The notes under the pieces are model-generated. The model worked only from the letters and a program-made list of their open reading frames with translations, was not told where the DNA came from and did not search any database. This document shows, piece by piece, positions 1 through 4,429 of a DNA stretch of 32,000 nucleotides. Within the stretch, counting starts at the first letter, position 1, and every line of letters starts with the position of its first letter. Origin of the DNA: Desulfobacterales bacterium (GTDB lineage Bacteria; Desulfobacterota; Desulfobacteria; Desulfobacterales; JAHEIW01); contig JASFNW010000017.1 in NCBI GenBank assembly GCA_050116835.1, positions 1 to 32,000 on the forward strand. Direction: 5' to 3'. The translations under genes and the position numbers were made by a program.

Positions 1-1647
1 AACTTCAGTCATCCGCCTGGCCGCTTCGATGCGCACCGCTTTGACCGGGTCATAAAGCATGGATGTTAGCAATTGTGTCTGGCGTTTAGGATCATTAACA
101 TTTATGTGATCGACAGCCGTGCGCCGAATCAGGGCTTCATCATCCAGCAATGCCAGTTCGTAAGCACGGCTGGTTTCTTTGCCGGTGTATGCTTCCAGGA
201 GCGATAAGGCCGTAGAACGCACAATGACCGGATACAATGGATCTGATGCCAGCTTGAGAAGATCTTTGTGCGCATCTGCCGATCCTTCCCGCCCCTCCGC
301 CAGGATGGTGCCGTAATGGGCCCTGCGGCCGGGTCCATACCATTTGGTGATATATTGATCGGACCACCGGTCGGTTTTGTCAACGTGGCAGCGGTTGCAG
401 GCATTGGGGGTGCCCAGTTTGATGCTCAAATCCGGCCGCGGGATCCGAAAACTGTGATCGGCGCGGTAATCGATGACCATGTAGGGTCGTTCCGGCATAT
501 GGCACTGGACACATTCAGCCCCCGTGCCCACCTCAAACAGTATTTTGCCATCCTTTGATTTGATCGGCTCCCCTTTTTCGCCCTTCCCCTTGTGGAAATG
601 GTGGACTTTGGTATCGTAAATGGCGGCCTTGTGGCATTGCAGACACAGCGCATTACCCTCTTTAACCTTTTTTATGCTGTGCACATCATGGCAATCGCTG
701 CAGCGCACGTTACGGCTATACATCTTGCTCTGGGTAAAAGAGCCGTAAACATAAACCTCTTCGAGGATCTGGCCGTCGGTGAAATACAACTCCGGGGTGA
801 GCAGACTGGGCAGCATGCTGTCCAGCAGATCCGGCTCGGCGTGGGTGTAATCTCCCAGTATTGCACGCCGGGCGTGGCAGGGGGCGCACAGCTCCACCTG
901 TGCTCGCGAATCCATGCCTTTTGTTTTGACCACCAATTGGTAATTAGCCGTTTGCGGCCGGGCCATATCCGGCAGCTCCGCCCACGCCACATGCCGTGAG
1001 CCGGGTCCATGGCAGGCCTCGCAGCTGACGTCGATTTCGGACCAGGTGGTGTTATAAGAATCGTTTGACATATCGTAGTTTTTTTTCAGATTGGTGGAAT
1101 GGCACTCGGCGCACATGCCGTTCCAGTTCTGGCCGGCATTGGTCCAGTAAAGCCAGTCTTTAGGATCGATGGGTGCATCCGGATACAAATGATACCAATT
1201 TTTTTTTTTCACATCCCAGGCGATGGGCAGACATTGCAATCGGCCGCCGGGAAAAGGCACCAGATATTGCTGCAGCGGGTACCAGCCGAAGGTATGGGTG
1301 ATTTCAAATTCGCCCATCTTGCCGTCCGGGCCCTGGGTGTGAACGAAAAATTTAGCATCCTGACGATAGAAACGGGAAGTGACGCCGTGAAATTCGACCT
1401 CCGCATTGTTAAAATCACCCAGGACGGTGGTGTCATCGGCAACTTCCATGGCGCGGTCGTGAAGCGAATTTTGCCACCTGTCGTACTCGGCTTTGTGGCA
1501 ACCCATGCATTTTTTGCTGCCGACAAAAGCGGCCATATGCCGGGGTGCAGGCGGACGGGCCAGGTATCTTTCCTTCAGCAGGTAAGCCGGAATGGAGAGA
1601 ATAATGATGAGGGTTGCAATCAGTCCGGTTATTTTCCAACGAGTCAT
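1..1647 (-). CDS. multihaem c-type cytochrome (8 CXXCH) with a HEAT-like repeat tail; the 3' end runs off the window
   Basis: Absent from the ORF track because the frame is open to the window edge. Manual minus-strand translation from the ATG at 1647 gives MTRWKITGLIATLIIILSIPAYLL (signal anchor). The frame is then uninterrupted to position 1. Haem motifs are CMGCH, CAECH, CEACH, CAPCH, CSDCH, CLQCH, CVQCH and CNRCH. The tail ...DPVKAVRIEAARRM resembles HEAT/PBS-lyase repeats. Plus-strand track ORFs 592..999 and 1099..1692 are antisense shadows. Confidence 0.85.
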   Translation of the reverse strand, partial: MTRWKITGLIATLIIILSIPAYLLKERYLARPPAPRHMAAFVGSKKCMGCHKAEYDRWQNSLHDRAMEVADDTTVLGDFNNAEVEFHGVTSRFYRQDAKFFVHTQGPDGKMGEFEITHTFGWYPLQQYLVPFPGGRLQCLPIAWDVKKKNWYHLYPDAPIDPKDWLYWTNAGQNWNGMCAECHSTNLKKNYDMSNDSYNTTWSEIDVSCEACHGPGSRHVAWAELPDMARPQTANYQLVVKTKGMDSRAQVELCAPCHARRAILGDYTHAEPDLLDSMLPSLLTPELYFTDGQILEEVYVYGSFTQSKMYSRNVRCSDCHDVHSIKKVKEGNALCLQCHKAAIYDTKVHHFHKGKGEKGEPIKSKDGKILFEVGTGAECVQCHMPERPYMVIDYRADHSFRIPRPDLSIKLGTPNACNRCHVDKTDRWSDQYITKWYGPGRRAHYGTILAEGREGSADAHKDLLKLASDPLYPVIVRSTALSLLEAYTGKETSRAYELALLDDEALIRRTAVDHINVNDPKRQTQLLTSMLYDPVKAVRIEAARRMTEV

Positions 1648-1654
1648 AGTTTTC

Positions 1655-1779
1655 TTAGACAGGATTACCAGGTTAAATTAAAATCTCTTTAGACAGGATT
1701 ACAGGATTAACAGGATAAGTTAAAAACTTTACTTTTCTCTTGCTAATACAATCCTGTCGATCCTGTTATCCCGTCTAAG
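1655..1779. repeat. palindromic ACAGGAT-unit element, short copy A (half-arm 1655-1676, left arm 1689-1719, right arm 1749-1779)
   Basis: The left arm is TTAGACAGGATTACAGGATTAACAGGATAAG. The right arm is CAATCCTGTCGATCCTGTTATCCCGTCTAAG. The two are imperfect reverse complements (about 24 of 30) separated by about 30 nt. Each arm holds three ACAGGAT units. Confidence 0.7.
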
Positions 1780-1790
1780 CTTTCATCCAA

Positions 1791-2315
1791 TCAAACTTTC
1801 TTTTTCGGATACGTCACTTGATCGACGCGAAAGGTGCTGCGTTTGATCGGTCTACGCGTATCGACTTTGATGATGTTGTTTTCAATGCTTATCGGATAGA
1901 TGTCCAGCGCCCGGGGAGCCGGTGCCTCGATGACATTTCCGGTAATATCAAAAGCCGATCCATGGCAGGGACAGGCAAACTTCATCTCATTTTCAACCCA
2001 GGGAACCGTACAGCCCAGGTGGGTACATGTGCGCGATAAAGCCAAAAATCCGCCGTCTCCCAGCCGTGCCAGGTAAAACTTTCCCCGTACAAATGCGGTT
2101 ACCGAATTCGGTTTAAATCTTTCGACTGCTCCTGCAGTGATGATTGAAACAGTGTCTTCTCCCCGGACTTTTGATTTGTCCGGTCGCAGAAAAGCAAATG
2201 CCACGGTAATAAATTCAACCAGGGCAACACCACCCAAAATAAGCCAGAGGATATTTAAAAAGGATCTTCTGTTTGGTTCATTATCCGATTTCTTTTCCTT
2301 AGCCATATTAGACAT
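1791..2315 (-). CDS. Rieske [2Fe-2S] iron-sulfur subunit of a cytochrome bc-type complex
   Basis: Rieske boxes CTHLGC and CPCHGS are present. The N-terminus has NRRSFLN (Tat-like) followed by a TM helix. Confidence 0.9.
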   Translation of the reverse strand: MSNMAKEKKSDNEPNRRSFLNILWLILGGVALVEFITVAFAFLRPDKSKVRGEDTVSIITAGAVERFKPNSVTAFVRGKFYLARLGDGGFLALSRTCTHLGCTVPWVENEMKFACPCHGSAFDITGNVIEAPAPRALDIYPISIENNIIKVDTRRPIKRSTFRVDQVTYPKKKV

Positions 2316-2348
2316 AATTTTCTTTTGTTCCTGATTTTTTTTTGTTTT

Positions 2349-2379
2349 TTAGACAGGATTACAGGATTTACAGGATAAC
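2349..2379. repeat. left arm of ACAGGAT-unit element, copy B
   Basis: TTAGACAGGATTACAGGATTTACAGGATAAC is near-identical to the left arm of copy A (2 mismatches). It lies 10 nt from the stop of the GxxExxY pseudogene. Confidence 0.7.
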
Positions 2380-2389
2380 AAAAAAAAAT

Positions 2390-2761
2390 TTATAATAGAT
2401 CTTTGAGTTTTCGTTTGACTTCGACTCTTCTTTCACCAAAGTTCAAAAGTAGACCGATAGGTTTGCCTGTGGCGACAAGGTAATTGACCAACTGCACCTC
2501 ATGTGCTCTGACAACTCGTCTGACTGATTTAAGCTCTAAGATTATCGTATCATCGACAATTATATCAGCCACAAAGTCTCCCACGATTTCGTCGTCGTAA
2601 GATACTTTAATCGGTTTTCGTGATTCCGGATTTAATCCATCCTTTCTTAGCTCGATAAGCATACATTTTTCATAAACTTACTCAAGAAAGCCAAATCCCA
2701 TGCGGTTGTATACGCGATATGCGCAGCCGATAATTTTTTCTGTTAATTCTCTGTATTCCAT
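2390..2761 (-). pseudogene. GxxExxY-family (PD-(D/E)XK-like) protein gene interrupted by an in-frame TAA
   Basis: The minus-strand ATG at 2761 follows a strong SD (GGAGGAGG). Translation gives MEYRELTEKIIGCAYRVYNRMGFGFLE*VYEKCMLIELRKDG...ELKSV...GLLLNFG. The TAA at 2678-2680 sits inside the family motif G-F-L-E-*-V-Y. The track ORF 2390..2662 is only the part after the stop. Confidence 0.75.
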
Positions 2762-2826
2762 ATTGCCTCCTCCAGGCTATGATAAATTATTTTGATAAGA
2801 TATTTTAGACATATCCTTTATTAATC

Positions 2827-2856
2827 AATCCTGTTGATCCTGTTATCCTGTCCTGA
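2827..2856. repeat. right arm of ACAGGAT-unit element, copy B
   Basis: CAATCCTGTTGATCCTGTTATCCTGTCCTG is near-identical to the right arm of copy A and inverted relative to 2349-2379. A further partial unit (ACGGGAT) lies at 2872-2878. Confidence 0.7.
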
Positions 2857-2911
2857 TTTTTTATTTTTTTAAACGGGATTATGTTTTTATCTTTTAATCC
2901 AATCTTCTGGC

Positions 2912-4429
2912 TCACGGCCACACCAATGCCACTTCCTTTCCACGAAACCAGATACCGGTAATCGTCAAAATGATAAAGGCAACCACTAATAGGACGAAAA
3001 CGGTTTGAATTGATTCGTTATTTGACGCAGCGTATTTTTTCTTCACCAGCCAATAAAACATGATGATACCCGCCAGAACAAATGCCGCCGGTAAAACGCC
3101 GTTACTGACAACCGAAGGCAGCCCAGGTAACCAGGCGGCAAAATCGATCACAAATTCATCTGCGACAATGCTGATCGGCGTTACGATAATGGCTACCAGC
3201 GCTGCCACAACAGCCATCCTGCGCCCCTTGAGAGATACGAACCACACGCCGGCTGTATCTGCCTGATAATTAAAATAAGGAATGCTGACCAGTGCAATCA
3301 ACATAAAAGTCGGCAGAATAAAAAAGGCAAACAGCGGGTGAAAGTGCAGGAGCAGCTCCTGGATGCCGGCAAAATACCAGGGCGCTTTAGTCGGATTGGG
3401 GCTCAGCCCCGGATTGGCTTTTGCTCCCAGGGGAGCATTATAAAAGACCGCGATTACCATGATAACTGCAATTAACACCAGAGCAACGACGATCTCTCTT
3501 AAAATCAAGTTTGGAATGGTGGGTACCTTCTCATCCCCGCTGCCCTTGTCTTCAGCCGGCCTGCGGGGAATTACCAATCCGCCGGCTTTACGCACCCGCC
3601 AGAAGTGCCATGGTAGCAAGATAATGAGACAGGCGGGAATGATGGCCGTGTGGATAGCAAAGAAAGTAGATAAGGTCGCCGGTCCGATATCGTTGCCGCC
3701 ACGGATGAGCGCTTGCAGCCATTCACCAATGCCGGGAATATATTCCAGCATACCGGTGCAAATCGTAATGGCCCAAAAGGCAAGCTGGTCCCAGGGCAGC
3801 AGATAACCGGTAATATTTGAAGTCAGCACTGCCAGAAACATTACCAGGCCGATGATCCAGTTGAACTGCCGCGGCGAATGAAATGCGCCCGTGAAAAATA
3901 CGCGCAGGAAGTGCAGAAAAACAATAATCAACAGCAGATTTCCGCTCCAGTGATGAAGATTGCGGATCAGTTGTCCAAAGGGCACATTGTGAAGATGAAT
4001 AATTGACTCGTACGCGCGGTCGGGTACCGGCTGGTAAACAAATTTCAACATCAGGCCTGTAGCAAACAAAAGGCAAATCAGCACCACAGCCATGCCGCCA
4101 AGACCCCATGTAAGTGTGAATCGGAGGGTGCGTTCCCGAACGCTGTGCGGACGAAAGTGGAGAATCAGGCTATTGAAAAAGCTTCGATAACGCTCACGAT
4201 ATTCTGGTCTTTGCAGAGTACCGGGAAAAATGGAATAGCGGATACGCTGAAACAGGTTGAGCCGATCCGGCATGGCATTGTTGGCTGGCATATAAGACGC
4301 TTTCTGAAAATCAGGAGACTCGTTAAACGCAACAGCATCCATATCCCGCATACACGTACCTGTCAATGCCAGTGTCGAACACGGATGGCGGAATAATAGA
4401 TTTTGCAACAATACCTTAACAGTTTTCAA
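2912..4429 (-). CDS. cytochrome b (fused b/b6 N-terminal and subunit-IV-like C-terminal domains)
   Basis: It is a polytopic membrane protein. Helices carry RNLHHWSGNLLLIIVFLHFLRVFFTGAF and further His residues, as in cytochrome b. It lies upstream of the Rieske and cytochrome c genes on the same strand. The start is uncertain (for example Met27 at 4351). Confidence 0.85.
   Translation of the reverse strand: MKTVKVLLQNLLFRHPCSTLALTGTCMRDMDAVAFNESPDFQKASYMPANNAMPDRLNLFQRIRYSIFPGTLQRPEYRERYRSFFNSLILHFRPHSVRERTLRFTLTWGLGGMAVVLICLLFATGLMLKFVYQPVPDRAYESIIHLHNVPFGQLIRNLHHWSGNLLLIIVFLHFLRVFFTGAFHSPRQFNWIIGLVMFLAVLTSNITGYLLPWDQLAFWAITICTGMLEYIPGIGEWLQALIRGGNDIGPATLSTFFAIHTAIIPACLIILLPWHFWRVRKAGGLVIPRRPAEDKGSGDEKVPTIPNLILREIVVALVLIAVIMVIAVFYNAPLGAKANPGLSPNPTKAPWYFAGIQELLLHFHPLFAFFILPTFMLIALVSIPYFNYQADTAGVWFVSLKGRRMAVVAALVAIIVTPISIVADEFVIDFAAWLPGLPSVVSNGVLPAAFVLAGIIMFYWLVKKKYAASNNESIQTVFVLLVVAFIILTITGIWFRGKEVALVWP

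Follow-up and report, generated by a model that had tools for sequence, protein, structure and literature searches.

A GxxExxY-family gene between inverted ACAGGAT arrays, and a probable empty counterpart, in a cytochrome bc operon of a Desulfobacterales bacterium

Background

The closest described relatives of the element reported here include the Ssn family, small GIY-YIG nucleases that are specific for single strands and are associated with NTS/SRM repeats (PMC11893778), and the REP/REPIN sequences with their RAYT genes (PMC3116915). Small ORFs within inserts are also known from the 23S rRNA intervening sequences of Coxiella (PMC4990558), and the relation between gene-bearing and empty copies is familiar from MITEs and insertion sequences. 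Here, we analyzed a 32,000-nucleotide stretch of DNA (the window) from a Desulfobacterales bacterium (contig JASFNW010000017.1), in which one spacer of a cytochrome bc operon holds a gene of the GxxExxY family between inverted arrays of the word ACAGGAT (the putative cassette, copy B) and the next spacer holds a gene-less pair of such arrays (copy A).

The cassette resembles the Ssn/NTS system in pairing a putative nuclease of ~100-125 aa and previously unknown function with a short hairpin-forming repeat that both frames the gene and is dispersed between other genes, as well as in its clade-dependent specificity and the wide distribution of the family across phyla. It departs from that system in its fold, since Ssn proteins are GIY-YIG (cd10448) and the window protein, which matches PF13366 only, is predicted to be PD-(D/E)XK and RecB/Cas4-like, and in having three phased 7-mers per arm in place of a single small palindrome. 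With REP/REPIN-RAYT, it shares hairpin-forming inverted doublets that are found only between genes and are tied to one flanked gene, singlets that decay, and gene-less copies that far outnumber the genes; unlike those systems, it carries a PD-(D/E)XK gene in place of a Y1/HUH transposase (RAYT), its arms are tandem word arrays, and its repeats are retained by many genomes that lack the cognate gene. The S23p/four-helix-bundle ORFs of 23S rRNA intervening sequences likewise belong to selfish inserts (~0.4-0.5 kb) that lie in transcribed DNA and whose inverted repeats, on either side of the small ORF, can form a stem, whereas the cassette sits between protein-coding cistrons rather than in rRNA and its cargo is a nuclease-fold protein. 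Finally, MITEs and autonomous insertion sequences have in common with it the empty-versus-full relation, terminal inverted repeats, and insertion polymorphism, but the cassette has no recognizable transposase, and no target-site duplication was seen.

The protein family itself (PF13366/TIGR04256; GxxExxY or PDDEXK_3) is very large in prokaryotes and has no known function. A 2012 survey lists it as "unknown, multiple transfers", and a full-text literature search on GxxExxY, PDDEXK_3, PF13366, and TIGR04256 found only incidental mentions; we found in the literature neither biochemistry of any GxxExxY protein nor a description of a nuclease-gene cassette with ACAGGAT-repeat arms.

Results and discussion

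Two ACAGGAT-armed copies in one operon

The window contig is contig 17 (C17) of a 5.18-Mb genome (G000; 261 contigs, 97% complete). The operon and its two copies are laid out as follows.

1..1647, minus strand: multihaem cytochrome c, a flanking gene of the host operon that extends past the window edge
1655..1674 (arm at 1658-1674), plus strand: further, incomplete arm TTAGACAGGATTACCAGG that lines up with the second of the downstream arms in congener cassettes
1689..1716, plus strand: copy A, second arm, TTAGACAGGAT-T-ACAGGAT-TA-ACAGGAT (plus-strand reading)
1717..1750, minus strand: copy A, loop of 34 nt whose ends align with the leader start and the post-gene stretch of the congeners' full cassette
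1751..1778, minus strand: copy A, first arm in the mRNA sense, TTAGACGGGAT-A-ACAGGAT-CG-ACAGGAT
1791..2315, minus strand: Rieske iron-sulfur protein, a host operon gene between copies A and B
2349..2376, plus strand: copy B, arm downstream of the gene, TTAGACAGGAT-T-ACAGGAT-TT-ACAGGAT (plus-strand reading)
2390..2761, minus strand: GxxExxY / PF13366 (PDDEXK_3) gene of 123 codons, identified by profile matches; a pseudogene with an in-frame TAA
2762..2827, minus strand: copy B, cassette leader with the Shine-Dalgarno sequence GGAGGAGG at 2773..2766
2828..2853, minus strand: copy B, arm upstream of the gene in the mRNA sense, GGACAGGAT-A-ACAGGAT-CA-ACAGGAT
2912..4429, minus strand: cytochrome b, a flanking gene of the host operon

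An earlier sequence-only reading of the window had placed ACAGGAT-unit arms in both intergenic gaps, narrowly separated in copy A and widely in copy B, and both points were borne out: each gap holds inverted arms of three words, with a word spacing of 8-9 nt. The arms of copy A (1689-1716 and 1751-1778) are 34 nt apart and 86% complementary, the left with three exact ACAGGAT words and the right with two exact words and one ACGGGAT, while those of copy B (2352-2376 and 2828-2852) are 451 nt apart and 88% complementary, with three exact words in either arm. All seven pairs of ACAGGAT words no more than 3 nt apart in the window fall in these two copies, against an expectation of 0.00 from 100 shuffles; a single ACGGGAT unit also lies at 2873-2879. 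The leader stretch TTATCAAAATAAtTTATCATAGCCTGGAGGAGG is common to congener cassettes and recurs in weaker form in cassettes of other phyla. A consensus scan for intrinsic terminators and for a promoter of the cassette's own yielded nothing exceeding shuffle level.

The enclosed gene

The ORF at 2761..2390 matches PF13366 (E 7e-40) and TIGR04256 "GxxExxY" (E 2e-40), and GGAGGAGG sits 5 nt 5' of its ATG. The sequence-only reading had described a Shine-Dalgarno-equipped GxxExxY gene within copy B, of which the family and the ribosome-binding site stand; what it missed is that the frame is broken by a TAA at codon 28 (2680..2678), within the name-giving motif (GFLE*VY), where intact relatives have TCA (Ser), which makes the window copy a pseudogene, while its homologues are intact.

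Searches by sequence found no solved structure. The nearest solved fold to the AlphaFold (AF2) model of the protein (pLDDT 92.6) is Cas4 SSO0001, with LHK-Exo, lambda exonuclease, MGME1, RecE, and AddAB nuclease domains also among the nearest, and on this model the protein is predicted to adopt a RecB/Cas4-like PD-(D/E)XK nuclease fold. All of these enzymes work on the ends of DNA and on single-stranded DNA. Homologues show no variation at E27, D66, E76, K78, or the two residues of the QxxxY pair (Q90, Y94), and a transposase-like domain (DDE, HUH, serine, or tyrosine) is absent. Over 7,900 homologues of the window protein were scored, the best 120 of them at 79-94% identity. Homologues from different phyla are 78-82% identical in amino acids with only 33-46% of third codon positions identical, a contrast that points to strong purifying selection acting on these homologues.

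Comparison with congeneric operons

Metagenome contigs with the congeneric operon were found through an exact-protein look-up of the closest homologues. Three of them (L171, L173, and L174) carry an intact gene (92-93% amino acid identity) between Rieske and cytochrome c, which is the spot of the empty copy A in the window genome, whose own gene lies between cytochrome b and Rieske. The position is thus polymorphic, and an intact gene in the other spacer of a related species indicates that the element has moved. Relative to the congener operon, the flanking genes are ~83% and the cassette ~90% identical in DNA.

In a four-way alignment, copy B is collinear with the full congener cassette, and copy A is collinear with the same cassette minus leader and gene, retaining the same upstream, downstream, and further partial arms. 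The ends of the copy A loop match the leader start and the post-gene stretch, which marks the loop as a deletion scar. The MITE-like relation of an empty to a full copy that the sequence-only reading had drawn from the two gaps is supported, with copy A aligning as the congeners' gap-2 cassette with its gene deleted. From these alignments, and taken jointly with the explanation as a whole, we consider it rather probable that copy A is of the same cassette type as copy B.

The two gaps vary widely among relatives. The cytochrome b-to-Rieske gap (gap 1), about 596-599 nt in the window, is reduced to 88-134 nt in five congeners. In four of the five, all that remains is a solo arm, decaying in two, whose spacers are those of the window's upstream arm (L003 and L005 have orthologous solo arms with identical spacers). 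The Rieske-to-cytochrome c gap (gap 2), 143 nt in the window, is only 17 nt in one congener (G010); most congeners have some heptamer hairpin in it, and hairpins of the CACAGAG type are found there. The relatives' operons thus differ by insertion polymorphism at both gaps, where conserved spacers might have been found, and copies A and B would be insertions into the cytochrome bc operon rather than native spacers, a conclusion that we hold on balance and jointly with the whole explanation. In annotating genomes, such long spacers within operons should be treated as insertions, not as regulatory regions.

Fourfold-site identity to the congener is 0.74-0.77 in the cassette and 0.52-0.78 in the flanking genes; its synonymous divergence is close to that of the flanks, which suggests that the relocation within the operon is old. 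A recent horizontal arrival of the window cassette is not supported, since at synonymous sites the cassette has diverged from its congener counterpart about as far as the flanking genes have. Movement is visible between species that are ~83% identical in the flanks, not between near-identical strains; no strain-level variants, sought through an identical Rieske protein, are on record.

Two further observations concern the same gaps. In the CACAGAG-type hairpin of the congeners' gap 2 (L002, L005, L007, and others), the CTCTGTG arm is intact and its partner has drifted to CAAGGTA-like units, so that decay there is one-sided. In gap 1 of another congener (G003, L007), a 96-aa GIY-YIG gene (PF01541, E 2e-15) is framed by GTCATTCCCGCGAAGGCGGGAAT hairpin repeats and looks Ssn-like, and a solo copy of the GTCATTCCCGCGAAGGCGGGAAT hairpin lies in gap 1 of G002. 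Small nuclease cassettes of at least two kinds, GxxExxY and GIY-YIG, have therefore landed in gap 1.

ACAGGAT elements in the genome, the genus, and other phyla

The genome-wide search for the arms that the sequence-only reading had proposed, using a two-word arm pattern, returned 29 matches in the window genome, where a reversed control pattern gave none, and every one of the 22 genus genomes had between 2 and 35. The window genome holds 13 paired elements (84-501 bp) and seven solo ends, all 20 of them intergenic, 10-90 nt from ORF ends, and between convergent or co-directional genes; none of its ACAGGAT-armed elements contains any other ORF. The operon copies A and B form a subfamily of their own, with a first spacer of 1 nt and without inner modules. 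The remaining ~18 elements have 2-nt spacers, and both of their ends bear a pair of hairpins, the first (H1) with the loop CGGAW and the second small, in the order three words, T-rich linker, H1, AAACyCAATCsCC, second small hairpin. Gene-less modular elements of the window genome include the following, among others.

C10:25407-25662
C16:3249-3489
C21:7733-7992
C72:21518-21769
C182:5524-5755
C231:728-1077

Covariation in H1 is strong: 97% of cells are paired, eight of ten pairs have changed on both sides, and the score is 0.83 against 0.27 when shuffled and at most 0.23 when slid. Every significant H1-H2 module in the genome comes straight after ACAGGAT words, and one such module also flanks a second ACAGGAT-clade gene, 57% identical, in a congener (G016).

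A scan across phyla, with one genome per species, found the triple word at no fewer than 120 loci in many bacterial phyla and two archaeal MAGs, and ~75 of the triple-word loci listed are gene-less hairpins with 25-100 nt between arms. In some loci (L149 and L171), the gene lies between complete hairpins, not inside one. No ACAGGAT-clade gene is present in five congeners that each have 15-35 ACAGGAT arm matches and of which two are 97% complete, indicating that gene-less copies persist without a resident cognate nuclease; most genus genomes bearing ACAGGAT repeats are without the cognate gene.

Two other identities for the repeats were tried and set aside. Rfam over positions 1500-3000 gave only two sub-threshold chance matches to known RNA families. 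A CsrA sponge was considered since ACAGGAU resembles a CsrA site and the H1 loop reads CGGAA, and was ruled out as the genome is without CsrA (PF02599 is not matched in this 97%-complete genome); the words of other GxxExxY clades, which do not contain GGA, also count against it.

Turnover at shared intergenic sites

Five genus genomes share the position of the element on C72, in which H1 has undergone a compensatory change, and at least ten other genomes have different repeats at this site. The C182 site is cleanly empty in one congener (G005), where two stop codons abut. Two genomes have the form found in the window genome, and the orientation in L218 (G033) and L219 (G014) is opposite to that in L217 (G000) and L220 (G007), which from the sequences is an in-place inversion between the arms. 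In three further genomes (L222 in G015, L223 in G012, and L232 in G010), an element with CGCAGAC words and inner hairpins of its own is nested in a decayed ACAGGAT arm, a situation met again in the window genome at C128:2650-2760. Comparison of the empty G005 site with filled C182 sites gave no clear target-site duplication, the gene ends differing between species, and because alternative alleles are mostly occupied by other repeat families, no sharp element ends can be derived. More generally, many word families occupy shared intergenic hot spots.

Word type follows protein clade

Three PF13366 copies are present in the window genome. The copy on C18 (33240-33605) has CACAGAG-word arms and an in-frame TAA, at a position where Gln is presumably the usual family residue; with the window copy also nonsense-broken, two of the three are pseudogenes. 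The copy on C57 (8163-8489) is intact and without arms, and was assigned by motif similarity (the tree was built without it) to an arm-less clade of intact GxxExxY genes with the motif GPGLHxAEYEEC (L036, L047, and L048), which may be a settled, non-mobile branch of the family. Across the genus, approximately one-fifth of GxxExxY copies carry stops or are fragments, and ~22 of 30 loci have three-word arms of other words (CACGAAG, CACAAAG, CACGAAA, CGCAAAG, CACTAAG, and CGCAGAT), with proteins 33-44% identical to that of the window.

In contrast to these other-word loci, all close homologues fetched (78-83% amino acid identity; from Thermodesulfobacteriota, Scalindua, and one contig of the CAYZZU assembly, a different contig of which is titled Nitrospirota) sit among ACAGGAT arrays, as do homologues 49-66% identical in other phyla. 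Every ACAGGAT-clade protein examined (49-94% identical, several phyla) is encoded among such arrays. The sequence-only reading had suggested that GxxExxY genes may travel as inverted-repeat-bounded cassettes and had noted what would speak against this, namely arms confined to this locus and to this gene, or spacers conserved without insertion polymorphism in relatives; the arms instead recur elsewhere, other GxxExxY genes bear them, and the gaps are polymorphic.

In a tree of 42 proteins, the sample of which is slightly biased since a few ACAGGAT rows were found through their arms, 13 word types require 12 changes, the minimum possible, compared with 27.6 for shuffled labels, and the ACAGGAT proteins form one clade (SH-aLRT 95.7). 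As gene and arms are physically linked, co-inheritance alone predicts some clustering of word with clade. It does not predict the exact word being kept while the protein diverges to 49% identity and the sequence between words is randomized. The conservation is of the words only: in 61 non-redundant hairpins, the spacers between words are 39% complementary, against 36.2 +/- 3.3% for shuffled partners, and thus pair no more than chance, so that selection appears to act on the words, not on continuous pairing, which points to word recognition. A folded arm would consist of three 7-bp helices parted by small bubbles.

Proposed explanation and alternatives

The reading of the two copies as a cassette and an empty copy is supported, and we lean towards an explanation in which copy B is a heptamer-armed GxxExxY cassette, i.e., a nuclease gene with its own leader and ribosome-binding site between two inverted arrays of three ACAGGAT words, belonging to a multi-phylum lineage with a clade-linked word. 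The mechanism is proposed by analogy, and the best reading is that of a nuclease-plus-cognate-repeat element, like Ssn/NTS and RAYT/REP, that would relocate over evolutionary time. Within the arrays, the protein would recognize its 7-nt word, which would probably be presented in single-stranded or hairpin/cruciform form, and it would cut at or near the arrays; repair of the break from an element-bearing template, or excision and re-joining, could then move, delete, invert, or copy the unit, and the gene-less hairpins would be non-autonomous leftovers. The logic would be as in Ssn/NTS and RAYT/REP, with a different enzyme fold and repeat design. What this locus contributes is relocation within one operon in which a collinear empty copy is also present, together with the test on the spacers, the match of word to clade, and the figures for selection on the protein; together, these data give PF13366/TIGR04256 a concrete partner in a 7-nt DNA word in phased inverted arrays.

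The alternative that survives best, although we regard it as unlikely, is a nuclease-plus-repeat system that serves the host, in which GxxExxY proteins cut or bind dispersed arrays and modulate recombination, transformation, or replication-associated ssDNA, as SsnA does at Neisseria NTS, and the repeats spread slowly through ordinary recombination. The Ssn precedent (PMC11893778) speaks for it, as do the strong purifying selection on the protein across phyla, the persistence of repeats with intact words in all 22 genus genomes, and the arm-less clade at apparently stable loci. Less easily accommodated are the many broken copies (about one-fifth in the genus, including two of three in the window genome) and the lack of the cognate gene in most ACAGGAT-bearing genus genomes. 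Moreover, word families at one and the same intergenic site differ from species to species, where elements are nested in or have replaced one another, a pattern that resembles insertions competing for sites.

Quite improbable, in our estimation, is that the arms are intercistronic mRNA structures, ~25-bp interrupted stems that would act as RNase III or processing sites or as stabilizers that fix the ratio of cytochrome b to Rieske to cytochrome c, with the gene as incidental cargo. The sequence-only reading had proposed ~30-bp stems of this kind and a fold of the transcript, and thermodynamic folds do permit stems in both gaps: copy A is predicted to fold to -41 kcal/mol (z -4.7), and the arms of copy B pair in the predicted minimum-energy fold of the whole gap (z -4.3). 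Some heptamer hairpin is present in gap 2 of most congeners, and processing of this type is known for those 23S rRNA intervening sequences that carry a small ORF (PMC4990558). However, the 17-nt gap 2 of G010 implies that a hairpin there is not essential, the solo arms of gap 1 are decaying in two congeners, the same elements occur between convergent genes and can be inverted in place, and the spacers are without covariation.

A scenario in which the copies are ordinary MITEs that depend for their movement on an unrelated transposase from another locus, with the GxxExxY gene as a passenger, would fit their terminal inverted repeats, small size, position only between genes, and gene-less and gene-bearing forms, but is very improbable, given that no ACAGGAT-armed element of the window genome holds another ORF, that no target-site duplication was seen, and that the word type tracks the GxxExxY tree with minimum changes across phyla, as a passenger would not.

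Wider readings and other cargo

Returning to the cassette explanation, a broader version, which we offer tentatively and think more likely wrong than right, would make GxxExxY a very large family of site-specific nucleases with clade-specific 7-mer arrays and a new class of transposase-free, self-propagating elements that would move through cuts at the arrays and copying during repair, with four-helix-bundle / 23S intervening-sequence proteins as a second cargo of the same packaging. If the protein cuts at its word, the family would amount to a natural collection of nucleases for short sites, each clade with its own specificity, a widespread class of intergenic palindromes would be explained, and the small ORFs in stem-bounded inserts, such as 23S rRNA intervening sequences, might be as well.

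Three of the four PF05635 genes (four-helix-bundle, "23S rRNA IVS protein") in the window genome are framed by tandem-unit inverted arms, which indicates that the packaging is not exclusive to the nuclease.

C99 (L240): GATGCTC/CGAGTATC
C27 (L241): GATTTTA/TAAAATC
C67 (L242): CGTCCTC/GAGGACG

Lastly, a deltaproteobacterial MAG contig (L084; JAKAJS010000232.1, positions 1-600) carries five ACAGGAT hairpins head-to-tail with a period of 112 bp.
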